Source: Minisyncoccota bacterium
GTDB taxonomy: Bacteria > Patescibacteriota > Minisyncoccia > Minisyncoccales > CG1-02-41-26
NCBI GenBank assembly: GCA_028712605.1
Contig: JAQTPV010000002.1
Span: 1-38,057 of the forward strand
Direction of reading: 5' to 3'
DNA: 38,057 nt
This document shows, piece after piece, positions 1,276-33,489 of this stretch. Positions within the stretch are counted from its first letter, which is position 1; every line of letters begins with the position of its first letter. A program made the position numbers and the translations under genes. Below the pieces are notes generated by a model that saw nothing but the letters and a program-made list of their open reading frames with translations, was not told the origin of the DNA and made no database searches.

Positions 1276-1298
1276 GGTTTTATTGTAATCGTCTGTCC

Positions 1299-2680: not shown

Positions 2681-3157
2681 ATGGCGGATCAAGACATTAT
2701 TAAAACAGCTGAAAAGCTTATCCAAGATTTTTTTAACAAGATGACTTTCTCGGTCGAGACGAACCTATCCTTGGGTGATGACAAAACATTAATTCTGGAA
2801 GCCAATACCCCAGAGGCTAGAGTTTTAATTGGCGAAAGGGGGCAGACTTTGGTTGAAATCCAGCAACTCTTGAACCGCATTATTAAAAAGCAATTAGAGG
2901 AGGCTGTTTATTTAGATTTAGATATTAACCGCTATAAAGCCAATAAGGTTAAATATTTAATGGATATAGCCCATACTGCCGCTGATGAGGTGGCCCTCAT
3001 CGGCCGAGAAAAGGTGTTAGACCCAATGTCGGCTTTTGAGAGGAGGGTCGTCCATTTAGAACTCTCTAGAAGGCCCGACATTCAAACTGAAAGCATGGGC
3101 GAAGAGCCCGAAAGAAGAATTGTTATTAGGCCTATTTCTTTCAGCGAAAGGGTCTAG
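2681..3157 (+). CDS. jag: Jag-like KH/R3H RNA-binding protein
   Basis: I take the in-frame ATG at 2681 (MADQDIIKTAEKL...); the track start at 2498 would overlap yidC. KH-like LIGERGQTLVEIQQLL and R3H-like ERRVVHLELSRRPDIQTESMGEEPERRIVIRP are present. Position after yidC is canonical. Confidence 0.85.
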   Translation: MADQDIIKTAEKLIQDFFNKMTFSVETNLSLGDDKTLILEANTPEARVLIGERGQTLVEIQQLLNRIIKKQLEEAVYLDLDINRYKANKVKYLMDIAHTAADEVALIGREKVLDPMSAFERRVVHLELSRRPDIQTESMGEEPERRIVIRPISFSERV

Positions 3158-3238: not shown

Positions 3239-3787
3239 TTGCCAAGGTTAAACTGCAAAGCAGTAAGCGTTCTAAATGTTATTCAATTTAAAGTCCCTCA
3301 ATTTTTAGAACGGGAATCAAATATCGCCTGGGGCCTATCGTTTAAAAATTTGGTAGTGGCCGTAGTTTTGGGATTTTCTCTATTCGGTCTTTTTTATGTT
3401 TTCCAGAGCCTTAAAATATTGTGGGCTTGGTTTATCCTTTTAGTGATAGTGATCGGCGCTTTTATAGTTTTTAATTTTGTAAAGATCGAAGGGCAAAGCG
3501 CCTTTGAGGTTTTTACCAACGCCGCCACCTTCGTTTTTTCCCGAAGGCTTTATATGTGGCAGCGGAAAGAAGGCGTAGCTCCGATTAGGCTGGCTCAAAG
3601 GTCCCGGCCAAAGAAAAAGGCCAAGGAGGCTGCGTTAAAGTTTGCGCCCAAGAGTCGTTTAGGGCTTTTGGGCTCCAAGATTGATATTAGTAGTATTATT
3701 GATCGTGAAGAATTTTGGGAGGATGTCACCTCTGAAGATGTTGCTTCTACTGATGAGGGGGAAGGGGCGTTAGGGGGAGAGGAGTAA
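3239..3787 (+). CDS. PrgI/VirB3-like small membrane protein of the T4SS-like block, with an acidic C-terminal tail
   Basis: FKVPQFLERESNIAWGLSFKNLVVAVVLG, then two TM helices and FVFSRRLYMW, matches my memory of the PrgI-family layout. It sits directly upstream of VirB4, as prgI-prgJ do. The start is uncertain: TTG at 3239, with no ATG nearby. Confidence 0.5.
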   Translation: MPRLNCKAVSVLNVIQFKVPQFLERESNIAWGLSFKNLVVAVVLGFSLFGLFYVFQSLKILWAWFILLVIVIGAFIVFNFVKIEGQSAFEVFTNAATFVFSRRLYMWQRKEGVAPIRLAQRSRPKKKAKEAALKFAPKSRLGLLGSKIDISSIIDREEFWEDVTSEDVASTDEGEGALGGEE

Positions 3788-3820
3788 GTTGAGGACACCC
3801 TAAGGTAATTTTATTTTTTT

Positions 3821-4450
3821 ATGGCCTTGCCGAGTCAAAATTTTTTGGAGTTTAAACAAATTAAAGAGGGCGTGATTACTTTAAAGAATAAAGCCCTTAG
3901 AGGTATTTTGTTGGTTTCTTCTATTAATTTTGATCTTAAATCTGAAGAAGAACAGAATGCTATTATTTTTCAGTTTCAGAATTTTCTAAACTCCTTAGAT
4001 TTTTCTACGCAGATCATTATGCAGTCAAGAAGGCTCAATATCACCGGTTACTTTGAAAAGCTTAAGGAGTTTGAAAGTAAACAGAGCAACGAGCTTTTAA
4101 AAATTCAAACCGCTGAATACCGCAAATTTGTAGAGAGCCTAGTGGGTCGCGGCACCATTATGACTAAGCAGTTTTTTGTGGTGGTGCCCTATACCATCAC
4201 GGAAATGGATGCTATGACTGGGGCCATTGGCTTGCGTCAGAAGGCGGGCGTTGAAGAGGAAATCTTTCAAAGATGCCGCGATCAACTTTACCAAAGGATG
4301 GAATTTGTGGCCATTGGACTAAGAAGATGTAGTTTAAGTGTGATCCCCTTAACCACCCCAGAAGTTATTGAGCTTTTCTGGAGCTGGCATCATCCCAAGG
4401 AGGCTGAAATCGGTTATTACCCTGAAATCCTGCCAGAGCTTAGTAAATAA
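3821..4450 (+). CDS. VirB4-family ATPase, detached N-terminal domain (209 aa)
   Basis: FKQIKEGVITLKNKALRGILLVSSINFDLKSEEEQNAIIFQFQNFLNSLDFSTQIIMQSRR resembles the N-terminal module of Gram-positive/Tn916-Orf16-type VirB4 proteins. It is in the same frame as the next ORF and separated from it only by TAA plus two codons. Confidence 0.6.
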   Translation: MALPSQNFLEFKQIKEGVITLKNKALRGILLVSSINFDLKSEEEQNAIIFQFQNFLNSLDFSTQIIMQSRRLNITGYFEKLKEFESKQSNELLKIQTAEYRKFVESLVGRGTIMTKQFFVVVPYTITEMDAMTGAIGLRQKAGVEEEIFQRCRDQLYQRMEFVAIGLRRCSLSVIPLTTPEVIELFWSWHHPKEAEIGYYPEILPELSK

Positions 4451-4456
4451 TTTATT

Positions 4457-6268
4457 TTGTTTATGCCCTTTAACTTGCCCTTTGAGCTTCCTTTTTTAAA
4501 AAAGCGATCCAATATTGAGGAGCTTTTGCTTAAGCCAACTGAAATTAAGGCTGAAGATATTATCGCCCCCTCTTTAATTGAGATTCGGTCAAACTATATT
4601 AAATTAGGCGAGCGTTTTTCTCGCTCCTTTTTTGTGTTTTCTTACCCGCGTTATCTCGCGGCTGGCTGGCTGTCGCCGGTGATTAATTTGAATTACCCGA
4701 TTGACATGTCTTTGCATATCCATCCGGTTAATTCGGGAGACATTCTACGTCAATTGAGGAAAAAAGTCACAGAGGTTCAGGCGGAAATTCAAGAGAATGA
4801 AGAGAAGGGTAAAATCAGAGACCCGGTGCTGGAAACTGCATACGAGGACATCGAACAATTAAGAGATGAATTACAAACTGCCAGAGAAAGGGTGTTTCGG
4901 TTGGGTCTTTATTTAAATATTTACGGTGACTCTGAACAAGAGTTGCGGCAGGGGGAAACCTTATTAAGGTCTATTTTTGAGGCGCGCTTAATTTATATTA
5001 AGCCCAATCTGATGAAAGAAAAGCAAGGCTTTATTTCCGCAGCCCCCTATGGTTTAGACCAAATTTTAGTGCATACCCCCATGAACACTGCGCCTCTTTC
5101 CAGTATCTTTCCTTTTGTTTCTCCGGACCTTTCGGCCAACGAAGGCATTCTTTACGGCATTAACCGCCACAATAACTCCTTGGTTTTGTTTGATCGTTTT
5201 ACCTTAGAAAATGCTAATTTGGTGGTGTTCGCTAAATCTGGCTCCGGTAAAAGCTATTTCTGTAAGCTGGAAATTTTACGTTATTTAATGCAGGGCATTG
5301 ATGTGATTATTATTGATCCGGAAAACGAATACGAGTTTTTGGTTGACGGTGTGGGCGGTTCTTTTTTCAAGATTTCTTTAACCTCTGATCACCATATTAA
5401 TCCTTTTGAACTACCGCCTATGGTTGACCAAGATCCCAGAGATGTTTTAAGGTCTAACGTGATTAACTTAGTGGGCCTGTTAAGAATTATGTTAGGGGGC
5501 TTGTCGCCCGAGGAGGACGCTATTGTTGATCGGGCCATTGCTGAAACTTATGCGGCCAAAGACATTACCCCAGAAACCGATCCAACTGAATGGAGGGATA
5601 GGACCCCCCTATTGTCTGATCTTGAAAAGGTTTTAGCTGGCATGGAGGGCGCTCATTCGCTATTGGAGAGACTGCAGAAGTTTACTCAGGGTAGCTACGC
5701 CCAGTTCTTTAATAGTCCCTCTAACGTTTCTTTAGAAAAAGGCCTAATAGTTTTTGGCATTAGAGATGTGGAAGATGAATTGCGGCCTATGGCTATGTTT
5801 GTAATCTTAAGATATATTTGGGCTCAAATCAGAGCTTCTTTAAAGAAACGCATTCTGTTAGTGGATGAGGCGTGGTGGATTATGCAATATGAAGATGGCG
5901 CTTCCTTTCTATATGGTCTCTGTAAAAGAGCTAGAAAATATTGGTTAGGCGTTTCTACCATTACCCAGGACGTCTCTGACTTTATGAAATCTAATTATGG
6001 CAAGCCCATTATTACCAATTCGTCCCTGCAGTTTTTAATGAAGCAAAGCCCGGCAACAATTGGTTTAGTACAAAAAACTTTTAATTTAACCGAAGGCGAA
6101 AAAAATACATTATTAGAAAGCTCGGTTGGTGAAGGCGTGTTTATTGCTGGTCAAAAGCGTATTGCTATTAAGGTTGTAGCTTCTTATGTAGAAGATCAGA
6201 TTATTACCTCTGCCCCAGAAGAAGTAAAAAAGTTAAGAGCGGCCAAAAAGAGAATGACACAACTGTAG
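4457..6268 (+). CDS. VirB4/TraE-type conjugal-transfer-like ATPase (middle and AAA domains)
   Basis: IAPSLIEIRSNYIKLGERFSRSFFVFSYPRYLAAGWL is the VirB4 middle module. Walker A is VVFAKSGSGKSYF and Walker B is RILLVDEAWW, followed by TQDVSDF. The start is TTG 4457 or ATG 4463. Confidence 0.85.
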   Translation: MFMPFNLPFELPFLKKRSNIEELLLKPTEIKAEDIIAPSLIEIRSNYIKLGERFSRSFFVFSYPRYLAAGWLSPVINLNYPIDMSLHIHPVNSGDILRQLRKKVTEVQAEIQENEEKGKIRDPVLETAYEDIEQLRDELQTARERVFRLGLYLNIYGDSEQELRQGETLLRSIFEARLIYIKPNLMKEKQGFISAAPYGLDQILVHTPMNTAPLSSIFPFVSPDLSANEGILYGINRHNNSLVLFDRFTLENANLVVFAKSGSGKSYFCKLEILRYLMQGIDVIIIDPENEYEFLVDGVGGSFFKISLTSDHHINPFELPPMVDQDPRDVLRSNVINLVGLLRIMLGGLSPEEDAIVDRAIAETYAAKDITPETDPTEWRDRTPLLSDLEKVLAGMEGAHSLLERLQKFTQGSYAQFFNSPSNVSLEKGLIVFGIRDVEDELRPMAMFVILRYIWAQIRASLKKRILLVDEAWWIMQYEDGASFLYGLCKRARKYWLGVSTITQDVSDFMKSNYGKPIITNSSLQFLMKQSPATIGLVQKTFNLTEGEKNTLLESSVGEGVFIAGQKRIAIKVVASYVEDQIITSAPEEVKKLRAAKKRMTQL

Positions 6269-6298
6269 CAATAACCATTTATCGCCACAATTTTATCT

Positions 6299-6673
6299 AT
6301 GAGTTCAGGCGGCGTATTTACCCCAGAAGGTTTTATCATGCTGGCAATAGCCGGATTTTTGGATTTCATAATGATGATTTGCATTGTGCTGACAGCGGCT
6401 TTTGGCGTGGGCCTTGTGGCCGGTAAAATTGTTTATGTTATTGGATTGACCATCATTACGCCATGGCAAATGTCTAAGTACGGATTTTTTAAGGGCTTGG
6501 GGGCTCGAAAGTCCGGCAATAAAAAATCAGCTTGGCAGGAAGCTAGAATGAAGAAGTTAAAGCAAAAATTCATAAGTAAACAGTTGCGCCGGTTAGCCTT
6601 TAAAATTGTGCCCATTCTTGGTGATTTTTATCCCTGGACTTATATTGTCTATGATACCTTGCAAAGCCCCTAA
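6299..6673 (+). CDS. Small integral membrane protein with a basic loop, function unknown, inside the T4SS-like operon
   Basis: 124 aa with hydrophobic helices (FIMLAIAGFLDFIMMICIVLTAAFGVGLVAG, IVYVIGLTIITPW). A Lys/Arg-rich segment follows, then a final hydrophobic stretch. Tight spacing with flanking genes. I recognise no family. Confidence 0.5.
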   Translation: MSSGGVFTPEGFIMLAIAGFLDFIMMICIVLTAAFGVGLVAGKIVYVIGLTIITPWQMSKYGFFKGLGARKSGNKKSAWQEARMKKLKQKFISKQLRRLAFKIVPILGDFYPWTYIVYDTLQSP

Positions 6674-6690
6674 TTATTAAAGGATATCCA

Positions 6691-9600
6691 ATGTATAGGC
6701 ATATTAAAAAAGTATTTTGGGGGACGATTCTAATCGTCGTTTTTTTACTTTGGGCGGCACCAATTTTAGCAGCATCAACCAATGAGATTCAGCCGTCGCC
6801 CTTAGAGCTGCAGTATCCCAAAATACCAGGCTTAGATGAGCTCCAAGCAGGGCAGCCTTTAATTTTTTACGTTAAATATTTTTTAAACTTATTTTATATC
6901 ATAGCCGCTGGCATAGCGGCTGGCGCTTTGATCTGGGGCGGTTTGATGTATTTAACCAGTAGCCAGTGGCCCAATAACCTCATTAAGGCTCGCGCCATCA
7001 TTAATAGATCACTTTTGGGTTTAGCTATTTTGCTGTGCTCTTACTTATTTTTAATTATTATTAACCCGGGCCTTCTGGTGTTTGATATAAAGGTTCCTCC
7101 AGCCCGACTTACGCCCACCGCACCAGCCTCTGCCTATAAATGCCAAGTGACCTTTACTTATGCGGCCGGCTTGAGTGTAGCTGAAAATGTTTTAAACGAA
7201 TTAACTCAGCAGGCCACGGAGCTTGACGATAAAGGGGAAAAGCAGTCTCGGTTTTTAGTAGACGAAAAAGGCGATATTAAAAGAGACAAAGACGGCGAAT
7301 TGATACCAATATTGGCTGCCGAAGAACCATTCTATGACACTTATCGTTTTTTGGTTGAGGCCCAGCAAATCAGTGAGGAATTGCAGAAGGCTATGAAGAA
7401 ATGCTCTTGCGGCAATACTCTTTTTCACATTGACGCTTTAACAGGTGATTGTCTGCCTGGGATGGAGAAAAAAGAGGCCGAAGCATTTATTAAACAAAAC
7501 CAGAATAAATATAAGGATAACCCGGGACAGGTAGAATGTTTAACTCGTTGTAGTGATTGTTTGCAGAAGGGCTGCGATTTCAAGAAATTAAAAGAGTTGA
7601 GAGATAAGCTTCAAGCCTTATTGGGAGAGGAGATAAAGCTCACTACGGCGGAGCAGCAGCAAGCCCAAGTCAATAATCTGCAAACAGGGCAACAGACGAA
7701 AACGTTACGTTCTCAAACAGCCAAGTTTGCCTTAACGCGATTGGATTATTTAAGAAAAACCCTAGAGGATAATGCCAATGAGTTTTACATCAACAATGCG
7801 GAAGGGTTCTTTGAAACAGATTTTAGGCTCCAGCAGCAGGATTTAATAGCTCAAGGGTGTGATGTGAAGGTCCAAACACCGGAGGTTTTGCAGTCAGCCA
7901 CAGCCAAGAGGCAAATTCCCCTTGAGGCCAGCAACGATCAAATAAATACAAAAGTTGTTTCAGCAAGCAAGTGGACTACTTATTTTAAAGGCTTTTTGGA
8001 TTTAGTGCTTGGCAAGAGCCAGGAGGTTAAAGCCCAAAAGCCAGCTATCTATTTTGACCCTACTGGTTTTTATGGCTGGTTTGATGCTCCTAGCTGGATT
8101 ATGCCTCCTGAAATTATAAACCATAACAGGCAAGTTGAATTGGATGCCAGCCGAGCGAACTTTACAGCGGTTATATTACAAATGTCGTTAGAAGATTTAG
8201 AAAAAATATTCCAGCAATGCCTATCGTCGGCCTTCCAATCGGGAGGATTTAAAATAACTTATCAGGAAATGGAGACGATAGTTAAGATGGCCATGAAGGA
8301 GATTGACAGCAACATCATTGATACTTTAATGGGCAAGAAAGAGGCTCTAGCTGCGTTAGTTGGTAAAACAATCAAAGACGAAAATAAAAATTCTTATGGG
8401 GCCAATTGGGTCAGCTCCGTTGATGCTTGCCAGAAAAAATGTATTGAGGCTTACTTGGGTACTGGCAAGCCAAATACAGCCGATGAAGAAGTCAGAAAAT
8501 ACACCGATAAGTGCAAGGAGCAGTGCTGGGTTTTGCCTCCTAACTTTTTTTCCAACTTGATTACAAGTTTTTTAGCCAGCAATCTTGAAAGCCATTTGCC
8601 AGATACCATACAAAATTTTCTAAACAGCACTTTTAGGGAGTGGGCCTTTAAAGATGATTTGAACAGTAAGTTAGATGCTGAAGCTATAGATTTAATTGGC
8701 AGGACCGCCAATAAAGCCTTAACAGAGAGCTTTGCTAAGCAAATCCCAGTTATTCAAAAAACCTTAGACCAAAAATTACGCGATACAAAATACCTAAGCA
8801 CAGTCATAAAAGCCTTAGATAAGATAGACAAGTTCGTGGCTTCCAGTACCGCTGGTATGCTTGAGAATTTAAATGTTCTGGAAAAGGGTACGGCTGGAGC
8901 TATTGCTGGGTATATCGGGAACAAGGCAGGCCAGCCATTGGACAAGCTCGTTGAAGGATACAAAAGCGATCACCCGGAATACTTTTCCGAATATAATTTG
9001 AAGGATTGCGATAAGATTTTAACCACAGGGCAAACTTTAAAAAGCGCCAAAAGTAACAAAAACATTTGCGACCTTAGCAGTCCCTTAACAGAAACACAGG
9101 TGGCTAATGAGCAAATTAGATGCTTAAAATTGTCTCCCCAAGAAATCACTGGTTTAAGGGGCTACCTTGGTGTTGGGGACATAAATGTATCAAGGAATGG
9201 GAATGAATACGGGCCCGATGTTGGCGAGGGCATGATAACTTGGGGGGTGTGCAGGTCCGCTAAAGAGGAACGAGAGAATATTTGTAGGGCCGCTGGCTAT
9301 TGCTGGCAGCCAAGCGGGGAAGATTCAAAAACTTACGAATGCCAAGGGTGCAAGTATAAATATGTCTTTGACGGGGACAATTATAAAATTAGTTCTCAAG
9401 ATGTTAAAAAGGCCGTGATATCTGGCACGGTAAACTTTATGGGTGGGCTTTTTTCGGCCTTTTTGCAAACGATTACGTACGCCGCCGTGAAGTATGCTGA
9501 AGTGTGGGTGCAAGACGAAGTGCTGACCCCCTTAAGGCCGTTTATAAGTCAGCTCCAGGTTTGGCAGAAAGAATTTAATCAATTTTTGCAGGAGGGGACA

Positions 9601-12600
9601 ATTAGCGATATCTTGCCCACCTTTGTTACTAACACCTTGCAAAGCAGTGCCGACACAGCGTTAAAGAATATTTGCAATGCCTATCAAAACAAACAATCTA
9701 TACAGGTTGTAAAGCCGTTTAATTTTGGTGATGTGGTTAAGTGGGGCGAGGATGAAAAAGAAGTGAGCTCTAAAGGTTTGGTTTTAGATTATGAAACCTG
9801 GAATTTTGGAAACCCCAATGACCAAAGCAAGTGGAGTATTGGCTCTTCTTCCTGCAATATTTACAATACCTTGCATACAACGCCCATGGGCCAGTTAGAT
9901 AAAATTAAGCACTGCAAGAAAAAAGCTGATGGAACCCAAGAGTGCAAAACCTTAGCTGAATTTTTAAATACCGACATTGAAGATTTAATAAACTCTCTTG
10001 ATACTCACTGTAATGATGATCTAAGGGCGGGCAAGGAGTGCCGAACTTTTAAAAGCTACCTTGAGGATCCTATTGAGCAATGGGTTTTTGGAGGGAAAAT
10101 ATCAAAGTTTCTTAAGGGCAATATAAAACAGATGGTTTGCGGAGAGCTATTAGATAGGGATTTTGGAATTGCCCTTGATACAAAAAAAGAAACCTTAGAT
10201 AAGTTTTGCGATGGTGTCAGGCTTGCTCCCTCTGGAATAGTTGCTACTGCAGCAAACATAAGAAGCATGAAGGATAAAACGAGAAGCCAGAAAGCTCAAG
10301 AATTAAGGGGTAAGGGCCTTGGCTTTTTCCCTCTTATTGATAAGGAAAAAGCCCAAGGCATCACTGATGCTCAAAGAATTTCCTGTTATATAAATTATTA
10401 TGCTTGCCATAATCCATTACAGTCTTTCCAAAGGCAAATTGGCAATACCCTATCGCAAATGCTGGCCTTGAGCTGCAATATAGTTGATACAAGGGTTAAG
10501 ATGGGGGGGTTGGATTGCAAGAATTGGGACAGCCCAGATTTTATCAAAACTAATTTAGGGAAGGATTGGCAGCCCTACTGTGAGATTTGCGATTTGATGG
10601 AAAATAAAAATGGCTCTTATCTTATCATAAGGGCTGTTGTTGAATCTTACTTTGGGGATAAACCAAAAGACGCCCAAAAGAGAAAAGAAGAAATAAATAC
10701 TTATGAGTGGGTTTGCTCAATGGCTCCCGATTGGTGTAATGAGGCCAAGGAGGTGGCTAAAGAAAGAGGCATAAGCGCCAACGAAATTATACTTTATACG
10801 GACATAGCCAGTCTTCCGCAGGACGTTGAGGCAGCCGGTAAAATCTTTATTGCTAACTTAACAGATCAGGGCCAAACCATAAATCAATTTTTAGTTAAAA
10901 TTCCAGATGGGATCATAAAATCTTTGGGTATTGATAAAGACACAAATAAAGGGGAGGCTACCTTGTTGAAAGGGAAAGGAGAGGGATCGGATAAAAACTT
11001 TTTAAGCCGAACGCCTTATCAATTTTTGCACGATGATGTTTGCGCAAAAATTGAAAAAGATTACAAAGAAAATCATAAGCAGTATACTTTTGAGGCCTTA
11101 AGGACAGGCGAGCTTAAAAAGCTTCCCAAAAATGCTTTGCCATATTCAGTGGAGGGCTTAGCTGAAGTTACAACCGCTGACGTTTTTAAGGCTTTAAGCG
11201 ACCTGGATGTTGATGTGGTTGGGATTGACCCCGAGGAATTAATCGCCTATTCAACCTGCTTGTCTTTGGATTATTCTCCAGCAGAAATAATGGGCTTGTC
11301 TTCCACTATGGAGCACTATGTTAATCCTCCAGAATATAGAATACTGTTTAGGCTGGTTCGCGACAATTTGTCTGATGACGAAATGCCCAAGGCCTTATCG
11401 CAGCTTTTAGACTTTATGCTTAATCAAACGCCAACCGGCGTTATGAAAAGCCTGGGCTTTTATTTAACCAACAACAATACCATTGGCATATTTTCCATAG
11501 ACTTTCAAAAATGGGCAATCAACACCGATAACACTGCCAGAAAAACGGAGATTCAGGGGAGTTTAAGCTCTGGCAGAATCAGCAGCAGCTTGAAACCTAT
11601 TTTGGAGGTTCAGAAAGTTATTCCTTTTGAGGATGAAAATCCCAATATAACTTTAGTGAAGATAGATAAAACAACCTTTCCTGGCTTGGCTGATTTAACA
11701 GTAGAAGAAAAATCAGGGTTACAAAATATCTGGCAAGTTAACGTCAATGGTCAAGACACAAAGTATAAAATATTTCAAAAAACGAGCTCTGTGGATGTTT
11801 ATTTTTATCCAGATGTTAATGGGCAGACAATTATTGCAGCAGCTGACTTTTTAGACACTAAAATAGGTTCTTTAATATCGCAGCAAACCAATAAGACTTT
11901 AGTTGAGCTTCTGATGGGAGAAAACGGCAAGAAGAAATTGTGCTCTGATTTGAAGTGCGAGGAGTGGGCGATGATTCAAAAACTTTTTGATAAAAGCCTG
12001 TTGGCTATGATTTCAGAGAACATAAAAAATCCGCTGTTTAGCGATGAATTATTGAAAAAACTAATGAGCCCCAACTTTTCAGTTATGAATTATTTGGCTG
12101 AAAAATATCCAATACTGAAAAAGCCATATTTTGACGTACTGTTTAACAAGTTGCCAAAAGAATGGCAGACTGATTTTGCGGCCAGCTATTACGGAGCAAG
12201 TAAAAGGAAAGAGGCCTTTGACAATTCGGTGGATAAGGCGGTTTCGGCTGTGCAAAAAACAGTCCAAGAGGGTTTTGATACAGCCTTAATAGAGGCCCCG
12301 AATTGGCTTTGGGATAAAATCGCTGGACTTTGGAATAAAAAGATGGGTGAAAATTTCAGCAATAATGTGAGCGGCACTTGCCGAGAGGTTAATACTGACT
12401 CTGTTTGCGATAAGGATAATTTAAAAGAAGTTTATAGGGAAACAATACAACCGGACGGCTCCCTTAAAAAGGAATGTTGTTCAACTGGCCAGCCCTTAGT
12501 ATGTGATCCAAGGTGCAGGGTTAAGCCAGGGCAAGGAACTTGTGCTTTTGAAAAAGGTGAGGTTTTGGAAAAAGGAGCTTTAGTTGGTGGTCAAAAAGTT

Positions 12601-12918: not shown

Positions 12919-12920
12919 CC

Positions 12921-18206: not shown

Positions 18207-18231
18207 TTAAAAAATCAAGTACAATAAACTT

Positions 18232-20127: not shown

Positions 20128-20139
20128 TATCTAAAAAAT

Positions 20140-22302
20140 ATGAAATTTAAAAAAAATGATTATCAAAAAGGGTTGTTCTTACTATTCTTTTTACTTTTCA
20201 TTCCCACCCTATCTTTTGGTCAGTTAAATGTTGAGGGTAATTATCCTGATGTGTTGAATATCTCTATCACTAAGGCCAGCCCTCTGGGCGAGGTGGTTAA
20301 ATATATAATTGGTTGGGCACTTATCGCTGCTGGCGTAGTGGTTTTATTATCTTTAATTGGAGCAGGAGTGCTATATCTAACTTCAGCCGGCGATACAGGC
20401 AGAATGGGCATGGCTAGACAGCGCATTGTTAGTTCAGCTCTTGGCCTGGTTATTCTCTTTAGTTCCTATGTGGTATTTAAAATTGTAGATCCCAAAATCA
20501 ATATTGTGGATATTGAAACCAAGCCAGTGGCCTCGGGGATATTTCTCTTCAAGGATGATGGCGACCAGAGTTTTCAGAAGTTTTTAGACGGGAAAATAAA
20601 TATTAGCGCGATGGTTAAATTAGGTAAGGCCTATTATATTACCAATGATATCCCAGATATGAATAAGGAATTTGGCGATTTCTTAGTGGCAGAAGGTGAA
20701 ACAAAACCAGACCCTTCTGACTCGTCCAAGGTGATTATTTCTGATCCAGCTAAAGCCAGGCTAAATTTTAAGGATTTTTCTATAGTTGGTATTGGTTTTT
20801 GGGGCGACTATGGCCAAAGGATGAAGGTAGTTACCTATGACTTATCTAACTTCAGTTATAGCAACAATAATAAGAAGGAATATACTTATACCTCTGCTAG
20901 CAAGAATGTCGGCGATATCAAAATCGTTGATCTAAGGGAGAACGGTTTTAAAGATAATTTTTTCAATACCGAAGTTTCGCCCAACAGAGAGGTCAAGTGT
21001 TATAATAGTGACGAAAAGAGGGTTAGCAATTGTTCCGGTATCGGAAAGGTAGTTTTGCATCCGCCATTATCGTTATCCTTAAACGGTAATGGCCCCGGTG
21101 TTTATCTGTATTCAGCTAGAAAGGAAGGCGATAGCAACCTGCCGGATCGGGAAAAATACTTCTTTTCTTCAGCTGAAGACTTTACGGCGAGCAATATTGA
21201 TTTTGACGATAAGGCACAATTTATTGCTATTAAAAACAAAAAAGACACTGATGCCACTGATACCAATGATTACTTGGCTATTTTGCATGAAGATAAAGAC
21301 TACACTGGCCAATTAAAAATCTTTTTTGATGGAAGAAAATCAAGAACAAGGCTCGCTTGTAATAAGGAGTGTCAAGAATCTCTTAATAAACTTGATAGCA
21401 AAAATACTAAGGAAATAGACCAGAAGCCCGTATCGGTTGCTGGCATGACATTCCCATTTGAATTTAAACAACCGCAGCCTTTTAATCTTTGGAGCGCTAT
21501 GGCTGCAAAAAATATAGGTACGGCGCAAGAACGATATAAAGCAAGCTCGCTTACATCGCATCCTTTATATAATATTTTAGGGAGAGTTGAACAGCCCTCA
21601 TCATTGCAGGTTTTTGAATTATCATCCGAAGAAGGTGTTTGCAAAAAGGTTAGACTTTGCACAGAAAAAAATTTCTTAGGCGGCTGTGTTGAATATACAT
21701 ATGATAATCAACATACTGCTGGCGTGGCCGAAAACGTGCAAGAGAAATGGCTACCTATTTATAAGCCGGAAAATTTAATTGAGAAAATTCCAGTGGAGAT
21801 TTCACAAGGCAATGATAAATCAACGAAAGAACTTAAGATAGATAATAATATCAGATCTATGCAAATAGATGGTGATTGTGCAGTGGTGCTTTTTGAAAAT
21901 CCGATAGTAGATGATAAGGGCAAAAGACAAGTGGTGTCTTTAGGAACAATAGCAGCTGCCAGCGCAGCAGGGGTTCTTATAGGAGGCGCAGTAGGAGCCT
22001 TGTATACTTTTGACGCTTTAGTTGTATCTATGGCAGTGGATGAATGGAAATTGGCTCTTGGCAAAGGAGATCCAGAAGATCAAGCTGAATATGATCAAAA
22101 CCTGGGCAATGTTAAATTAGCAAACAATTGGGATTTTCAAGGCAAAAGCCCCGGTTCTCATTCAGAAGTGTTTACTGCAAGCGACAGCGACTTAACTGAT
22201 AATGAAATTGGAAAATGCGGGGTTTTGGAAAGAATAGGATTTAAAACAGCCGTATCTTGTGCTTCTGCTATTGCTATCTATCCCATTAAGGTCTTAAGGT
22301 AA
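20140..22302 (+). CDS. 720-aa protein: second VirB2/TrbC-like pilin hairpin fused to a beta-rich ectodomain with a C-proximal hydrophobic segment
   Basis: Signal peptide LFLLFFLLFIPTLSFGQ, then IIGWALIAAGVVVLLSLIGAGVLYLTSAGDTGRMGMARQRIVSSALGLVILFSSYVVFKIVDP, which is paralogous to the N-terminus of the 2075-aa protein. There is a Gly/Ala-rich hydrophobic stretch, LGTIAAASAAGVLIGGAVGALYTF, near residue 600. Confidence 0.7.
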   Translation: MKFKKNDYQKGLFLLFFLLFIPTLSFGQLNVEGNYPDVLNISITKASPLGEVVKYIIGWALIAAGVVVLLSLIGAGVLYLTSAGDTGRMGMARQRIVSSALGLVILFSSYVVFKIVDPKINIVDIETKPVASGIFLFKDDGDQSFQKFLDGKINISAMVKLGKAYYITNDIPDMNKEFGDFLVAEGETKPDPSDSSKVIISDPAKARLNFKDFSIVGIGFWGDYGQRMKVVTYDLSNFSYSNNNKKEYTYTSASKNVGDIKIVDLRENGFKDNFFNTEVSPNREVKCYNSDEKRVSNCSGIGKVVLHPPLSLSLNGNGPGVYLYSARKEGDSNLPDREKYFFSSAEDFTASNIDFDDKAQFIAIKNKKDTDATDTNDYLAILHEDKDYTGQLKIFFDGRKSRTRLACNKECQESLNKLDSKNTKEIDQKPVSVAGMTFPFEFKQPQPFNLWSAMAAKNIGTAQERYKASSLTSHPLYNILGRVEQPSSLQVFELSSEEGVCKKVRLCTEKNFLGGCVEYTYDNQHTAGVAENVQEKWLPIYKPENLIEKIPVEISQGNDKSTKELKIDNNIRSMQIDGDCAVVLFENPIVDDKGKRQVVSLGTIAAASAAGVLIGGAVGALYTFDALVVSMAVDEWKLALGKGDPEDQAEYDQNLGNVKLANNWDFQGKSPGSHSEVFTASDSDLTDNEIGKCGVLERIGFKTAVSCASAIAIYPIKVLR

Positions 22303-22323
22303 TTTGGAATTGTTTTCTAATCT

Positions 22324-22353
22324 AAAAACCTCGCTAAGCTTAGCGAGGTTTTT
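22324..22353. terminator. Bidirectional rho-independent terminator closing the T4SS-like block
   Basis: AAAAA-CCTCGCTAAGCTTAGCGAGG-TTTTT is a perfect 20-nt palindrome flanked by an A5 and a T5 run. It lies between convergent genes ending at 22302 and 22381. Confidence 0.85.
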
Positions 22354-22380
22354 AGATGAAATCATTGATAGTTAACAAGC

Positions 22381-22854
22381 TTATTTTACTGGCTCGCGGT
22401 AGGTATCACCACTAGAGGCTGACGGCATTGCGGTTGTTGTTACGCCTTGTCCTGCAGTAGATGGCATGATTGCCTCTCGCGGTTGATTAGTTATGGCTCG
22501 TTTCATGATTTTAGCATCAGGCGTGAATTGGATATTTGGATAAAGGGGAGAAAGATATTCTTTGAGTGGGTGAAAAAAATTTACTATAAGCTCTTGAGCT
22601 AAGGCTTCAGCCTTTTCTTGGCTTATTGTTGCCTCTTGCGTTAAGTCGTAGGCTAAAGTATCAGGGGATAACACGCCTATTAAAACATAGCCCACTAAAC
22701 TAGCTAAAGTTGGGTAATCTGTTTCGTCTAACTCATATTTGGCTGCCAAGTCTGCTATCATCTTACTTGTTTTTTCTGACACAATTACTGTTTTTAACTC
22801 CTGTGGTAAAGCCTCAAATAAATCCAATAATTCTTTTTGATTGTAGTCGTCCAT
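22381..22854 (-). CDS. Hypothetical protein (157 aa), helical N-terminal domain and low-complexity tail
   Basis: ORF with its own near-consensus promoter and a terminator. No recognisable motif. Confidence 0.55.
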   Translation of the reverse strand: MDDYNQKELLDLFEALPQELKTVIVSEKTSKMIADLAAKYELDETDYPTLASLVGYVLIGVLSPDTLAYDLTQEATISQEKAEALAQELIVNFFHPLKEYLSPLYPNIQFTPDAKIMKRAITNQPREAIMPSTAGQGVTTTAMPSASSGDTYREPVK

Positions 22855-22875
22855 ATTTATTAGAAGTTCACCTTT

Positions 22876-22903
22876 ATTGTATCAATTTGTAGAGTAGTGT
22901 CAA
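22876..22903 (-). promoter_or_regulatory. Near-consensus sigma70-type promoter for the 157-aa gene
   Basis: On the minus strand: TTGACA (22903-22898), 16-nt spacer, TACAAT (22881-22876), 21 nt upstream of the ATG at 22854. Confidence 0.55.
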
Positions 22904-22906
22904 AGG

Positions 22907-22935
22907 TTGACAGGCTACGTCAGATATGCTATAAT
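22907..22935 (+). promoter_or_regulatory. Perfect-consensus sigma70-type promoter facing the SPFH-like gene
   Basis: TTGACA (22907-22912), exact 17-nt spacer, TATAAT (22930-22935). The predicted leader to the ATG at 23074 is about 130 nt. Confidence 0.6.
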
Positions 22936-23073
22936 ATAGGTATTAAGAATCGTATTCTCGGACACTATTTTTTAAGGTTCGGGAGCGGTTCCCGAACCTT
23001 AAAAGTTTAGAAAATTGTTTTTATTTTTTTGTTTCTAAGGCACATATTGGGCACTGCGCCCGGGAGGTTTCTG

Positions 23074-24150
23074 ATGAAAGCTGAAGTAACTGTATGGATT
23101 CTTTTGTGTCTAGCGATGCTTATTATTGGGCTTGTTATTGGTTCCCCAATCGCCAAGGTCGTATTAATTGTTCTTTCCGGGGCGTTTCTGCTTACCTTGT
23201 TTATCTGGTTTTTGTCGTCAATAAAGACGATCAAAAAACCAGATGAAGTCATAATCACTAAGTTTGGTAGGCAGCATGGCCGCAAGAAGCCGGGCCTCCG
23301 TATCATTTGGAAATGGGTGATGAGGGTGGCCAAAGAGATTAACCTACAAGTCCATGCCCTAAGCATTTTTGCTGACAAGCCGGAGATTGATTTTGCGGAC
23401 GGCATTTCTGCTAAAATTCAGAATTGTCAAATTCATGTGAAGGTCAAAGAGGATCGCGTTGAAGAGTCTTTCTATGAATATGAAGACTATGAGACGCAAT
23501 TAAAGGCTTTTGCGCAGAATCAGTTGCGCGGCGCTTTCGGGGATAAAAAGGCTCAAGAAGTGAAAAGCAACAAAAAATCTTGGGCAACTTGGATGGCCGA
23601 TGCCCTAGATGAGATTAGGAGGGCATTCCCTTTTTTGGAGATTTTGTACGTTACTATTGAGGACTTTGAATGGCCTCGAGACTTTATACAGAAGCTCCAG
23701 CAAGTAATGGCCGCTGGGATAGATATTGACGTAAAAAAACTAGGGCTGGAGATTGCTAAGTTGGATGCAAAGATTCTCCAGGAGTCCTCTGGTGACATCA
23801 TTGATGCTATGATAGAAAAATATAAGCAAAGAGGTCTCAAATTGGAGGATGCAGCCCTATTGGCTTACCAGGCTTGGGAGCATGCCACGTCGCTGAAGGC
23901 TGGCGTGCTAAATCACCAGAAGTTTGACTTCCGGGGGGGATCGTTTGATGCTGCAGCGGCATCGTATGCTTTGAACGCTTTAAGCGGTCTTGGGAGTAAA
24001 ATTGCTGCAGGGGCTACGGGTAGCGGCCCAAGCCAACAACCAACCCAACCCCCGCAGGTCCCTACTAGCGGCGCTGTTGCTACTCCCCAGCAACAGGCTA
24101 ACATAGACCGAGCTCTACGCCTAGCGAGGCAACGAGCTGGTAGAACATAG
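23074..24150 (+). CDS. SPFH/band-7-like membrane protein with Q/P-rich C-terminus
   Basis: I take ATG 23074, preceded by GGGAGG 6 nt upstream, rather than the track start at 23029. N-terminal TMs are followed by DEVIITKFGRQHGRKKPGLRIIWKWVMRVAKEINLQVHALSI, resembling the SPFH core start (rfGr...pGl.f..P). The rest is divergent. Confidence 0.55.
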   Translation: MKAEVTVWILLCLAMLIIGLVIGSPIAKVVLIVLSGAFLLTLFIWFLSSIKTIKKPDEVIITKFGRQHGRKKPGLRIIWKWVMRVAKEINLQVHALSIFADKPEIDFADGISAKIQNCQIHVKVKEDRVEESFYEYEDYETQLKAFAQNQLRGAFGDKKAQEVKSNKKSWATWMADALDEIRRAFPFLEILYVTIEDFEWPRDFIQKLQQVMAAGIDIDVKKLGLEIAKLDAKILQESSGDIIDAMIEKYKQRGLKLEDAALLAYQAWEHATSLKAGVLNHQKFDFRGGSFDAAAASYALNALSGLGSKIAAGATGSGPSQQPTQPPQVPTSGAVATPQQQANIDRALRLARQRAGRT

Positions 24151-24163
24151 GCGCTAAAAGCGC

Positions 24164-24196
24164 AATACTGGTGCATCAAATTGATGCACCAGTATT
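24164..24196. terminator. Bidirectional hairpin terminator between convergent genes
   Basis: AATACTGGTGCATCAA-A-TTGATGCACCAGTATT has perfect 16-nt arms. It is followed by TTCATTATTC on the plus strand and sits between the stops at 24150 and 24226. Confidence 0.7.
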
Positions 24197-24225
24197 TCAT
24201 TATTCTTGGGGATGTAGTGTAGAAA

Positions 24226-27144
24226 TTAGGCCCTTCTTAATGCTGCTTCAATCGCTTCTACTACATTAGCTAGCCTCTCGGCGCTATCAGGATCGCCGGT
24301 GTTATTAAGCCGCTCTATCTGTTCTATAAAAGCATTGACGTTGTCGCTATAAGTTCTTTTGATGGCTTCTTTCTGTTCATCAGTGCCATTATTGATAATG
24401 TCATTAACCTGATTGACATTCATATTGAAAACAATATTCATATCCCTGATGTCATCTTCTGTAAATTCAGTGCCCCTTCTTTCCGCTGGTTGCTGGGGCT
24501 GTTGTTGGGTTTGCTGTTGGCCAGTAGTTTGTCTAGTAGCTTGAGGTTGGCTCCGTTTGATTTCTAAATCAGCCTTGGCTTTGGCTAATTTCTTTTCTGC
24601 TTCAGCCTTTTCTGTTTCTAACCGCTCCTTTTCTTTTTTGGAGAGATGGCCGGTATTTAAATTTTGGTTTATCTCCAGTAAGCGCTTTTCCCATCTTTCA
24701 ATTGCCCTGGTTAACTGCCTTTCTGTTTTGGTGGAGGCTCCTTCCCAGCTCAATCCTAAATTACGGGCGGGTGAGTTATTCATATAATTGTAAAGCTGTC
24801 TATTATTTTTTTCATACCATTCGCTGATTCTCCTGGGGTCGGTGGAGCCAGCCATTTTAGGCATGGCACTCTGGAAAACCTCTATAAATTTACGGCCAAA
24901 AAGTTCAGCGCCTTTGGCGATTTGGGCTCCGGTCCAGAAACGTTGAGCTGCCTCACTTTGAGCAGCTTCCAGCCCTGCCTCTTTGCTTAAATTAGCCATT
25001 TTGGATGGGCTCATGGTGCCCACCTCTTTGCTGTAAGCGGTGCTGGCGATCACTGTTTCTTCGTTGCCATTAGCGTCTTTTTGAACCCTGGTCATCCCAC
25101 CATAGGTTTCTTTATCGTCTTCACTGTAATATATGCCTAAACGTTTTTGTTGCTGTTCGGTTATATTCAACTCGCCGATCTCCATGTCTTTTATCGCACC
25201 TTTTTCTTTTTGGCTAATAGATTGCTCTTTTTCAGCGATTTGAGTATTTAAGGTCTCCTTGTCTTGTTGGGCCTTTTGGTATTCATCGCTATCTCTGTAG
25301 TATTTGAATTGACTTAGAGGATTATTTAGAATTGCCTCTGCTGCCTTCATTTGATTTCTAAGATTTTCCACTTCTGTTTTTTCGGCGGCCACTTCTGTTT
25401 TAATTTGTGCTATTTCCCCTGGGCTTTTACCAGCTGATTGGTCGGGGTTTTTTTGCATTTCCCTTAAAACTGCTTCGTACAATTTTGGATCGGCGGTTTT
25501 TACCACCCCCACGCTATCGGCTGCTCCCATATTAATGGCGGTTTTCATAATATCTTTTAATAAATAGTCGGGTAGCTGGCTCCTGATGTCTCCTAAGCTT
25601 CCGCCTTGGATGGCCTTAACTAAGGCGGCTATTCTTTGTTTATCACCAAGCATGCCCGGCCCGGCATTTTTAATGGCTGCGATTAGCTCTTCTGGCGTTT
25701 CTCCAATTTTTCCTGCCCTTTCTTTAATTTTAGATTCGGTGCGGACTTGAGCTTTAGCGTCAAGCGTTCTAGCGGCCCGACGACCCAATCCAGCTGCTAG
25801 CTGGGCCCCGCCTAGCGTGGATATATTGAGCAGGCCCCTGCCTAAAGTCCGGGCCACTCTTTTGCCGCCAGTGCTCCACTCCGCTTTTTCTTTGTCGGTT
25901 TCACCACCGAATAAAAATCGCCCCGCCTTACCAGTTTTGGCCCTAAATTGGTGTCCTCTGGCCCAGTCTTCATAACCTTCTTGTCCGGGCTTTAAGGCTG
26001 TGCCAGCCTTCCTTTTCCATAAATTGCGGGCTCCAACTCCAGCCGCCAGTGCTCCAGCAGCAGCTCCAGCAGCAGCATATTTGACGGGTGCCTTCGCCGC
26101 TTTTTTAGCGTAACCCTTGGCTCTACTGCTAACATTTTTAGCTGCACCCATGATGCCACCAGTTCCCATGGCGTTGATTTTAAGGGCCATGATTAGGCCG
26201 AAAATCAAAAAGATAATGGCGGCAAAAAATGGCGCGATGTTGTTGAACACTCCAGCAGTTGGTTCTTGCCCCAAGGATTCATTTTTGAGCATTGTTTTAG
26301 ACATCAAAACAGCGTGTTGGGCTAAATATATGAAAAAGCTTGCTGGCACCACAATAAAAGCCCATTGTAGGAATTGGCTCCACCACATATCAAAGTATTT
26401 TTTCCACCTATCAAATACCCAAAAGAAAAACATTATAGGAGACAAGATTACTAGAATCCATAAAGCCGGTGCCCTGACAAAAAATAAGGCGCCAAACAAT
26501 ATTAAAATTCCAGCCGAAGCTACGCCGAAGAAAATCAACATTAAAACTTGCAATAGCATTGAACCGCTGCCAATGATGTCTAATTTGTTCTCCCACAAGA
26601 GGCTCCTTTGGGTCTTAAAGAGGTCGGCAATGGTAGAGAAGTCAATACTTTGTAAAAAGAAGCTGGCTAGGATATTGGCCACATCAACAATGGCGCCGCA
26701 GATCACCGGGCTAAAGTTGATAAATAAAGCCACAACTAAAAGCTTAGCAAAGGTTTTTTGAGTATTGAAGCTAGTTAGGTTAAGGGCCGTGGACAGGCCG
26801 ATATAGGCTAACCCCACAATGAACATTATATTGGTCATATCCCGCAGCAAGGTCCAGCCGATACTAATAACTTCGTTGTTGGCGGGGTTTGTTAGAGAAA
26901 CATTAAAAAGGCCTTGAGCCGCTTTTTGTAAAAACCAATTGCCAAAAGAAATGGCAAACTCCGAGATGGCCAAGATTATCTGCAATAAAGTGGAAACCAA
27001 GAGAGAGGGCAAGGCCATCAAGGCTTGGCTCCAAAAACCAGCTTTGGCAAATTGCAAAGGAATAAAAATTATAGCTAAAACAATCAGGCCCAATAAAAAA
27101 ATGGTCCGTTTTTTGTTTCGTTGCCAAAAAGGAAGAGAAAACAT
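24226..27144 (-). CDS. VirB6/TrbL-like polytopic membrane protein with ~640-aa hydrophilic C-terminal extension
   Basis: 972 aa. A signal-like N-terminus is followed by at least 6 hydrophobic helices with Trp-rich loops over the first ~330 aa (e.g. FFVRAPALWILVILSPIMFFFWVFDRWKKYFDMWWSQFLQWAFIVV), the layout of TrbL/VirB6-type channel subunits. The long remainder is Lys/Ala/Glu-rich with coiled-coil-like and Q-rich tracts. Confidence 0.6.
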   Translation of the reverse strand: MFSLPFWQRNKKRTIFLLGLIVLAIIFIPLQFAKAGFWSQALMALPSLLVSTLLQIILAISEFAISFGNWFLQKAAQGLFNVSLTNPANNEVISIGWTLLRDMTNIMFIVGLAYIGLSTALNLTSFNTQKTFAKLLVVALFINFSPVICGAIVDVANILASFFLQSIDFSTIADLFKTQRSLLWENKLDIIGSGSMLLQVLMLIFFGVASAGILILFGALFFVRAPALWILVILSPIMFFFWVFDRWKKYFDMWWSQFLQWAFIVVPASFFIYLAQHAVLMSKTMLKNESLGQEPTAGVFNNIAPFFAAIIFLIFGLIMALKINAMGTGGIMGAAKNVSSRAKGYAKKAAKAPVKYAAAGAAAGALAAGVGARNLWKRKAGTALKPGQEGYEDWARGHQFRAKTGKAGRFLFGGETDKEKAEWSTGGKRVARTLGRGLLNISTLGGAQLAAGLGRRAARTLDAKAQVRTESKIKERAGKIGETPEELIAAIKNAGPGMLGDKQRIAALVKAIQGGSLGDIRSQLPDYLLKDIMKTAINMGAADSVGVVKTADPKLYEAVLREMQKNPDQSAGKSPGEIAQIKTEVAAEKTEVENLRNQMKAAEAILNNPLSQFKYYRDSDEYQKAQQDKETLNTQIAEKEQSISQKEKGAIKDMEIGELNITEQQQKRLGIYYSEDDKETYGGMTRVQKDANGNEETVIASTAYSKEVGTMSPSKMANLSKEAGLEAAQSEAAQRFWTGAQIAKGAELFGRKFIEVFQSAMPKMAGSTDPRRISEWYEKNNRQLYNYMNNSPARNLGLSWEGASTKTERQLTRAIERWEKRLLEINQNLNTGHLSKKEKERLETEKAEAEKKLAKAKADLEIKRSQPQATRQTTGQQQTQQQPQQPAERRGTEFTEDDIRDMNIVFNMNVNQVNDIINNGTDEQKEAIKRTYSDNVNAFIEQIERLNNTGDPDSAERLANVVEAIEAALRRA

Positions 27145-33451: not shown

Positions 33452-33489
33452 TTTATTTTGTTTAATAATTTTTACTTTTAGACCTTTAT

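Follow-up and report, generated by a model that had tools for sequence, protein, structure and literature searches.

A Patescibacteria type IV secretion locus beside the origin cluster, with pilin-like modules fused to large cysteine-rich surface proteins

The Patescibacteria carry a type IV secretion system (T4SS) with a monophyletic VirB4 clade related to class MPF-FATA, and its phylogeny points to an ancient acquisition from monoderms (Quinonero-Coronel 2025, PMC12102498). In that work, the TrsD, PrgI/VirB3, VirB6 and VirB2-like proteins are widespread, relaxases are nearly absent, linked type IV coupling proteins (T4CPs) are rare, and an enrichment of the locus is seen near dnaA, dnaN, rnpA, ksgA and rpmH. 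Here, we describe one such locus at positions 3239 to 27144 of a 38,057-nucleotide (nt) stretch of DNA, called the window throughout, which is positions 1 to 38,057 of the forward strand of contig JAQTPV010000002.1 (GenBank assembly GCA_028712605.1) of a Minisyncoccota bacterium.

The same survey finds the VirB2-like pilins in 1,948 virB4-carrying assemblies with a pilin gene near virB4 in only 1,135 of them, and its main text treats VirB2 as a small protein and detects no adhesins. In Southlakia epibionticum, the T4SS genes SEML1_0006-0019 with their pilin array are essential for the epibiotic growth by transposon sequencing (Wang 2023, PMC10633639), while the comEC-dependent transformation is dispensable. 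The system has been reviewed (PMC12857230), a 2025 FEMS review speculates on a pilus conduit, and a 2026 preprint proposes host-reaching tubular structures as possible T4SS pili. An earlier reading of the window from its letters alone (the sequence-only reading) took the giant-protein cargo and architecture to be uncharacterised as far as known; the system itself is already published, and it is the modular-pilin variant that is under-described.

By its sequence, the window locus is this known T4SS in a variant whose pilin modules carry giant ectodomains. It shares with the Patescibacteria clade a highly conserved VirB4, the TrsD and PrgI/VirB3 proteins, a putative extended VirB6 and the PF18895 modules, and it is likewise chromosomal, without relaxase or coupling protein, and near dnaA, dnaN, rnpA, rpmH and ksgA. 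It differs from the Southlakia locus, whose length-listed pilins are stand-alone proteins of 126-138 amino acids (aa), in that here both modules belong to fusions, with ectodomains of ~600 and ~1940 aa. It also differs in that a 1761-aa Cys-rich secreted protein and a Cys-rich protein with a lytic-transglycosylase-like (LT-like) domain are interleaved with the pilin fusions. We consider it likely that this is a chromosomal, relaxase-less Patescibacteria T4SS whose pilin modules are fused to large surface proteins assembled by the VirB4 machine.

Eight plus-strand open reading frames (ORFs) form one tight co-directional run at 3239-22302 (Table 1). The gaps between them are, in order, 33, 6, 30, 17, 2, 25 and 12 nt, and the prgI-type ORF starts 81 nt past the jag stop at 3157. 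The ORF list agrees in these respects with the sequence-only reading, whose gene order also stands apart from an omission, the separate 209-aa TrsD-like ORF. The exoproteins together make up 5187 aa or 82% of the 19-kb operon (72% excluding the 631-aa protein). No other locus compared has so large a block, the sizes running from 0 aa up to the 5187 aa of the window.

The comparison set came from a scan of one genome per species, which gave 80 loci with VirB4 61-85% identical. They belong to the Gribaldobacteria, Nealsonbacteria, Staskawiczbacteria and other Parcubacteria/Paceibacterota, although some of the records are labelled with different or plainly mistaken organism names. The organism of the window is itself related to Candidatus Gribaldobacteria. 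Each of the 80 related species genomes fetched carries the same virB4 locus, so the absence from close relatives that would mark a recent mobile acquisition is not seen.

The VirB4 ATPase has both Walker motifs that had been read from the letters. With NCBIfam NF045971 (conju_CD1110) it scores 338.5 bits, above the cutoff of 325 (E = 8e-101, spanning 180-734 of the 752 profile positions), and it matches Pfam P-loop_TraG at E = 2.5e-24. By sequence, it is closest to the ATPases of the Gram-positive and mycoplasma conjugative elements, class MPF-FATA. It has at least 8000 homologues; the 120 among the matches listed are 69-92% identical to it, and those named by source are Patescibacteria.

The VirB4 N-terminal domain is a separate gene, because NF045971 aligns to the 603-aa protein only from position 180 and the 209-aa ORF covers the N-terminus. 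The latter protein matches the N-termini of the VirB4 profiles (NF045975 positions 105-211 and NF045971 positions 8-106), carries a precomputed PF26593 TraC-like annotation and is present in 80 loci. The split is native, since VirB4 measures ~595-605 aa in all its homologues and the two genes occur together in the 80 loci. A pseudogene or an alternative genetic code as the cause of the stop between 3821-4450 and 4457-6268 was considered and rejected, since the two-gene arrangement and the ~600-aa VirB4 are conserved. Separately, VirB4 of the JGI contig L003 (L003:5834-9442) has 1202 aa, with an intein with a LAGLIDADG endonuclease directly after GSGKS and flanks 84-88% identical to the window VirB4.

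The PrgI/VirB3 and pilin-module assignments of the sequence-only reading, like that of VirB4, hold at the family level in profile searches, and that of VirB6 does so more tentatively. PF12666 (PrgI) is matched by 71 of the 73 homologues of the 3239-3787 protein, at best with 2.6e-11. The start of its gene is uncertain: the homologues begin with MQY.VPQF, which aligns to window codon 15 (3281, ATT; IQFKVPQF), so that the gene either begins at the TTG upstream, with 14 additional residues, or uses a non-canonical start codon. The small membrane protein of 124 aa, whose family lies directly after VirB4, matches nothing in Pfam or NCBIfam.

The VirB6/TrbL-like protein is polytopic and lies at the coordinates first read, but its gene is on the minus strand, in the ksgA transcription unit and outside the run. 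It has seven transmembrane-like (TM-like) segments in its first 330 residues and then a hydrophilic tail of ~640 aa. TrbL is matched by 14 of the 49 homologues (best 6.3e-9), and the family occurs in 51 loci, mostly adjoining ksgA. Its family profile finds TrwI in the PDB at E = 7, which is not significant. The tail (24226-26150, minus strand) is rich in Gln, Glu and Lys as in the 'extended VirB6' proteins, and the homologues have lengths of 575-1263 aa. A 12-nt tandem repeat of 2.2 copies at 26051-26076 encodes an Ala/Gly run just past the membrane domain.

The best profile matches of the window proteins are to the MPF-FATA systems, namely pGO1 trs, pCF10 prg, the Clostridioides CTn CD1110 family and the Mycoplasma integrative and conjugative element (ICE) with Mbov_0395/0397. 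VirB4 goes to NF045971/NF045975, TrsD to NF041427, PrgI to PF12666 and the pilin module weakly to the Mbov_0395 pilin-like family. Like these systems, the locus is of monoderm type without the VirB7/9/10 outer-membrane core. Unlike them, it lies outside any mobile element and showed no relaxase, T4CP or oriT context, it has VirB2-like modules, and its surface proteins have neither the LPXTG-type architecture nor PrgB-like domains.

The pilin modules consist, by sequence and hydropathy, of a signal peptide and then two TM helices joined by a basic loop, with a consensus of ...YL.S.G.P....AK..I....LGL.IL..SYLIL.TINP.L. The N-termini of the 2075-aa and 720-aa proteins are 34% identical (E = 1e-12). 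For the former, T4SS_pilin is the top Pfam hit, sub-threshold at E = 0.022 and reaching 5e-5 in orthologues, and the whole protein gives E = 4e-35 against a pilin-domain hidden Markov model (HMM) whose alignment includes the protein itself. For the latter, Pfam T4SS_pilin gives E = 4e-4, below the gathering threshold, and the NCBIfam Mbov_0395 pilin-like family 0.007. Among the relatives, T4SS_pilin (PF18895) is matched by 92 of 125 related N-termini (best 2.3e-10), a few of which also match TrbC. In the 720-aa family, 66 of the 72 aligned sequences match PF18895 (best 5.9e-22) and 5 weakly match the beta/gamma-crystallin families. No pilin was recovered by the pilin-domain profile in the PDB.

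The modules resemble the VirB2, TrbC and TraA pilins in the signal peptide, the two hydrophobic helices, the short basic loop and the frequent PF18895 matches in the family. Those pilins, however, mature to ~70-130 residues and polymerise, whereas the window modules carry 600-1940 extra C-terminal residues. Large size is the rule in the relatives too: the 129 pilin-domain ORFs in the 80 loci have a median of 476 aa, with 118 of them above 300 aa. Within 10 kb of virB4, none of the 80 loci has a complete pilin ORF of at most 200 aa. Of the short matches up to that size, five are convincing and all cut by contig or locus ends, and a sixth is marginal (E = 0.009).

All four large proteins open with a hydrophobic N-terminal segment that we take to be a Sec signal peptide or a signal anchor. 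Three of them contain 2.9-4.5% Cys, as compared with 0-1.6% in the other proteins measured, and Cys is 78-88% conserved in their families against an overall identity of 31-38%. The 2075-aa protein has 60 Cys, 78% conserved in a five-sequence family alignment of 31% overall identity. In the 1761-aa family, found in 11 loci, Cys is 88% conserved against 33% overall. The Cys-rich N-domain family of the 631-aa protein occurs in 21 loci with 5-11% Cys.

The giants had been called orphans, which they are not. At E <= 1e-3, 3352 cluster representatives match the 720-aa protein, and the nearest clades contain orthologues of the 2075-aa and 1761-aa proteins. Those of the 2075-aa protein are P0121 in L003, at 39% over the full length, and others in L013, L014, L011 and L005. 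Its ectodomain is also homologous over ~1200 alignment columns to the ~1230-aa proteins of L007-L009 and L016 (hhalign E = 1e-45), while only the pilin module is shared with the 1000-1400-aa Cys-rich proteins of the Staskawiczbacteria-type loci. The same module thus carries unrelated ectodomains in different clades. A word-indexed homologue search with the 2075-aa protein gave one relative; the synteny-based retrieval was far more informative.

In Pfam and NCBIfam, no recurring domain was found in the ectodomains and 40 related exoproteins. The 1761-aa protein contains no Pfam domain, and its family profile finds only coiled-coil chains in the PDB. The extreme C-terminus of the 720-aa protein (...SCASAIAIYPIK...; region 21931-22302, residues ~598-720) is conserved across the family, some database fragments matching this part alone. 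Its residues 598-616 are Gly/Ala-rich and hydrophobic, lie inside the stretch of ~592-664 that fails to align with the L003 orthologue and, from this alignment, may be an insertion.

The 631-aa protein had been read as an SLT-like, VirB1-type hydrolase. Its residues 444-567 are 32% identical over 142 aa to P0127 (PF13406, SLT_2) with the E-S and GGAMGPxQ(F/I)xPSTW motifs in register, while Pfam SLT is the top hit with a weak E = 0.022, below the threshold. The domain has no NCBIfam match, a single-sequence PDB search gave nothing meaningful, and a VirB1-type hydrolase is weakly supported. In L074 (L074:10493-12166), an LT-like domain corresponding to window residues 425-584 of this protein is apparently fused to a 558-aa pilin-module protein, whose pilin label comes solely from the first phmmer pass. 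This fusion, as far as sequence goes, suggests domain shuffling among the exoproteins.

The neighbourhood of ksgA, VirB6 and jag-yidC-rnpA/dnaA-dnaN is found in most relatives with enough flank. The commonest layout runs ksgA, virB6, h157, prgI, trsD, virB4, the small TM gene and zero to four pilin-fused or Cys-rich genes in one direction, optionally with an opposite SPFH gene between virB6 and h157, then jag, yidC and rnpA in the other direction and dnaA and dnaN in the first again. The window differs from it by a single inversion of the block from prgI to the last pilin gene, by which prgI follows jag while h157, virB6 and ksgA are convergent downstream. This inversion is common to L003, L005, L011 and L014, and to L004 as far as its short contig shows. 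Hence, as regards the jag-then-block synteny, the neighbourhood is conserved in most relatives, but the co-directional jag junction is not the common layout; it is most likely derived, judging from the gene orders, by a local inversion in a sub-clade. L013 retains the common order yet has the giant genes, which therefore predate the inversion.

Between the window and L003, the identities are 84% for VirB4, 82% for TrsD, 68% for YidC, 63% for Jag and 33-44% for the exoproteins. The G+C content is even across the window, 0.38-0.46, without anomaly, and the GC skew is positive over the operon. The claim that the locus is core chromosome rather than an ICE is thus borne out by its presence in 80 of 80 relatives, the even G+C and a VirB4 and TrsD better conserved than YidC.

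Conjugation is unlikely, as also judged at first, because the 38 kb yielded no relaxase, T4CP or integrase. The Pfam and NCBIfam scans, which took in the locus proteins and most flanking ORFs of the 38-kb window (all but 31008-31379, 35751-36167 and 37379-38057), gave no T4CP, relaxase, VirB11, VirB7-10 or integrase, in agreement with the sequence-only reading. In four related loci, the sampled ORFs of 650-750 aa near dnaN are class A penicillin-binding proteins, not coupling proteins.

The large proteins are better read, from their sequences, as structural or adhesive surface parts than as T4SS cargo. Because of the N-terminal signal or anchor segments, two of them with the VirB2-like hairpin, they would reach the surface via Sec/YidC. 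The hairpin loop would be cytoplasmic, so the C-terminal mass would lie outside the cell. This placement fits the high Cys content, the conserved Cys and a recorded family, enriched in the candidate phyla radiation (CPR), that has a conserved disulfide-bond-formation motif and is often encoded beside VKOR. We therefore take the large proteins to be genuine, folded and extracellular.

In a plausible mechanism, all four large proteins would be exported by Sec/YidC through their N-terminal signal peptides, without being T4SS substrates, and their conserved cysteines would be oxidised outside the cell. Two would stay attached by the VirB2-type hairpin of two TM helices and a basic cytoplasmic loop, with the C-terminus outside. 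In the classical systems, VirB4 drives the extraction of VirB2 from the membrane. By analogy, the VirB4/TrsD/VirB3/VirB6 machine may pull the hairpins from the membrane and assemble a surface stalk or conduit, while the LT-like domain would open the wall locally. The fast-evolving ectodomains may then contact the host cell and set the host specificity; such a host-interface role is supported by the ectodomains being 33-44% identical in a genome pair in which VirB4 is 84% identical, by the unrelated ectodomains that one pilin module bears in different clades, by the essential T4SS and pilin array of Southlakia and by the host-reaching tubules of the 2026 preprint. As to the transport direction, both the export of effectors and the uptake of host macromolecules are possible.

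Several points weigh against this reading. The window proteins' own scores for pilin, PrgI, TrbL and SLT are all below the curated thresholds. The family profiles of the 720-aa and 2075-aa proteins have no meaningful match in the PDB, and the AlphaFold2 models have a mean confidence (pLDDT) of 42.9 for the 631-aa protein with a 7-sequence alignment and of 35.1 for the 720-aa protein alone, both too low for use. A hairpin burdened with 600-1900 additional residues may not be able to polymerise as VirB2 does, and a pilus is not assured because no complete small pilin gene lies near virB4 in the 80 loci. A T4CP or relaxase could be elsewhere in the genome beyond the 38-kb window. Essentiality and function are extrapolated by analogy from the Saccharimonadia, whose listed pilins are short and stand alone.

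The fused proteins could alternatively be minor or tip pilins, acting as adhesins on a thin pilus of small VirB2-like pilins encoded elsewhere, as in the Saccharimonadia. We regard this as possible, though not probable. The listed Southlakia pilins of 126-138 aa are encoded beside the T4SS and essential (PMC10633639), and the pilin genes are missing near virB4 in many of the surveyed assemblies with such pilins (PMC12102498). The rival is opposed by the lack of any complete pilin ORF of at most 200 aa within 10 kb of virB4 in the 80 loci.

A precedent for it exists in another pilus family. The modular type IV pilins, e.g. of Streptococcus sanguinis, have a pilin module fused to an adhesive module. 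They share with the window fusions the design principle of a conserved pilin module and a variable functional ectodomain. Their fold and their assembly machine, that of the type IV pilus instead of type IV secretion, are unrelated, so the likeness is a functional analogy only.

Another tentative alternative is that the machine serves chiefly to take up DNA, RNA or nucleotides from the host, like ComB and the archaeal Ced, with the large proteins merely holding the host close. Import of host macromolecules is preferred in the published discussion, a VirB4-bearing parasite is connected with feeding on host RNA in the 2026 preprint, and ComM/YifB is encoded nearby. VirB4 weakly matches the DNA-import ATPase CedB in NCBIfam (E = 2.6e-12), but this score is far below the family cutoff. 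Moreover, nothing in the window bears on the transport direction, and the dispensability of the comEC transformation in Southlakia means that ComEC-type DNA uptake cannot explain the T4SS essentiality, though uptake by the T4SS itself may still occur.

The VirB2-like hairpin may also be a membrane anchor only, so that the surface proteins are independent of the T4SS and their co-location comes from a shared high expression near the origin. This is improbable in our view. It would suit the unrelated ectodomains of different clades and the ~10 loci in which the pilin-fused genes lie upstream of virB6 rather than after virB4. However, under every arrangement, in 72 loci, the pilin-domain genes are kept inside the T4SS locus. 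PF18895 is a family of T4SS pilins, and in Southlakia the pilin array is essential along with the motor.

That the giant Cys-rich proteins are cargo pushed through a VirB4/VirB6 channel, as the sequence-only reading had entertained, is very unlikely despite the tight coupling of their genes to virB4 in one operon. It is contradicted by the Sec-type N-terminal segments in all four and the membrane hairpins in two, and no substrate-recruiting coupling protein was found in the scanned window ORFs. To our knowledge, T4SS substrates are all far smaller than folded proteins of 1700-2000 aa. Finally, a decayed or domesticated ICE inserted beside the origin would accord with the relation of VirB4 to the conjugative ATPases of the Clostridioides and Mycoplasma elements and with the ancient transfer from monoderms in the published phylogeny, but it is hardly credible as the scanned window ORFs include no integrase, relaxase or T4CP, no tRNA is nearby, the locus is in 80 species and mostly syntenic with a motor more conserved than YidC and a uniform composition, and any acquisition predates the class.

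Returning to the surface-protein T4SS that we favour, a bolder version of it can be put forward as a speculation. The clade, apparently class Paceibacteria, might have a T4SS without a free small pilin, in which modular VirB2 hairpins with a conserved sequence dock into VirB4/VirB6 and carry ectodomains that are interchangeable, rich in disulfides and hypervariable, with sizes of up to ~2200 aa. The 2075-aa and 1761-aa proteins, whose genes are separated by the 2 nt between the stop of the first and the start of the second, would then be a translationally coupled pair that forms a long fibre recognising, and perhaps breaching, the host envelope, and such genes would be the primary host-range determinants.

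Table 1. Features of the 38,057-nt window, with the T4SS operon first
Feature	Position	Strand	Basis and remarks
PrgI/VirB3-like membrane protein, 2 TM segments (residues 37-55, 60-78)	3239-3787	+	Pfam PrgI E = 3.5e-4, below gathering threshold
TrsD-like protein, free-standing VirB4 N-terminal-domain homologue, 209 aa	3821-4450	+	NCBIfam TrsD (NF041427) E = 3.1e-7
VirB4 ATPase, 603 aa	4457-6268	+	Walker A GSGKS at residue 262, Walker B LLVDEAWW at residue 467
Small 2-TM membrane protein with basic tail, 124 aa	6299-6673	+	Family directly after VirB4 in 42 loci
2075-aa pilin-fused protein	6691-12918	+	Signal peptide; VirB2-like hairpin at ~residues 30-135 (DNA ~6778-7095); ~1940-aa Cys-rich ectodomain
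1761-aa secreted protein	12921-18206	+	Signal peptide only (one N-terminal hydrophobic segment), 80 Cys, coiled-coil-like stretches
631-aa TM-anchored protein	18232-20127	+	Cys-rich domain at residues ~7-400; LT-like domain at ~444-567 (DNA 19561-19932)
720-aa pilin-fused protein	20140-22302	+	Signal peptide; VirB2-like hairpin at ~residues 30-125 (DNA ~20227-20514); ~600-aa ectodomain
Bidirectional intrinsic terminator closing the operon	22324-22353		A5-CCTCGCTAAGCTTAGCGAGG-T5, perfect palindrome
h157, 157-aa Cys-free protein, no TM-like segment	22381-22854	-	Family in 56 loci, often immediately upstream of prgI
SPFH/Band-7 membrane protein, recurring inside the locus between virB6/h157 and the rest	23029-24150	+	Pfam Band_7 E = 2.8e-12
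Extended VirB6/TrbL-like protein, 972 aa, directly downstream of ksgA on the same strand	24226-27144	-	Pfam TrbL E = 2.4e-3, below gathering threshold
ksgA/rsmA rRNA dimethylase, conserved boundary gene of the locus	27203-28021	-	Pfam RrnaAD E = 9.7e-63; synteny
dnaA, N-terminal 307 codons, gene runs off the window; origin-cluster marker	1-923	-	DnaA-like translation, P-loop GGVGLGKTHL
rpmH, ribosomal protein L34, 44 aa (presumed)	1141-1275	+	
rnpA, RNase P protein	1272-1640	+	L003 orthologue with PF00825; homologues in 52 loci
yidC membrane insertase	1866-2600	+	PF02096 on identical protein
jag/KhpB, KH and R3H domains	2681-3157	+	Pfam R3H E = 1.6e-14, KH_KhpA-B E = 1.6e-6
LysM and M23 peptidoglycan peptidase	28229-29215	+	Pfam LysM E = 1.8e-24, Peptidase_M23 E = 4.6e-21
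ComM/YifB	29259-30806		
tRNA-Ala, sole tRNA of the window	36176-36246		~9 kb past the virB6-like gene

Two further genes share the locus. The h157 protein matches no Pfam family and has a near-invariant C-terminal motif D-x-Y-R-E-P, in which Y152 and E154 are invariant and D150 and R153 at least 90% conserved; it may be a T4SS accessory protein that has gone unrecognised. In many relatives, the position of the Band-7 gene is occupied by an ORF on the opposite strand, with Band_7 confirmed in L025, and L017 has a Band_7 ORF beside virB6 in a different arrangement.

The operon-closing terminator was first noted as strong and bidirectional, and its folding bears this out with -27.1 kcal/mol and z = -8.45, none of 200 shuffles being equally stable. 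A consensus terminator scan did not list this hairpin, although it is clear upon direct folding. The tRNA-Ala is the only tRNA and lies at the distance from the VirB6-like gene that the sequence-only reading had given. The tandem-repeat and Rfam searches of the window gave nothing else of relevance.

The origin proximity of the locus, judged by gene content, is real. ORF 1141-1275 we take from family knowledge, rather than a profile search, to be L34. In the relatives, the ORFs of ~450 and ~374 aa at the dnaA position are read as dnaA and dnaN by position and size. The dnaA-rpmH spacer 924-1140 has no cluster of DnaA boxes and holds one, with one mismatch, and the 15 boxes of the whole window do not exceed chance, as 6 of 100 shuffles have at least as many. 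The oriC is probably elsewhere, e.g. on the far side of dnaA. At the other end of the locus, an ORF of ~320-390 aa, like the LysM and M23 gene in size and orientation, adjoins ksgA in the relatives, matched by position and size. Farther on, three consecutive minus-strand ORFs of 165, 274 and 339 aa at 32954-35397 match no Pfam family at E <= 0.001.

The Patescibacteria T4SS is already seen as a probable key to the life of ultrasmall cells on their hosts, and in its sole genetic test it was essential. The window locus is a concrete lead to the host-facing parts of this system. In a large environmental clade, the pilin-like modules seem to anchor large Cys-stabilised proteins that evolve far faster than the motor, instead of being small pilus subunits. 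For the biology of T4SSs, a VirB2-type module with a passenger of 2000 residues would be an unusual architecture. If the ectodomains decide the host recognition, they would be candidates for the prediction of host range from metagenomes and targets for the labelling of contact sites in cultivable relatives.

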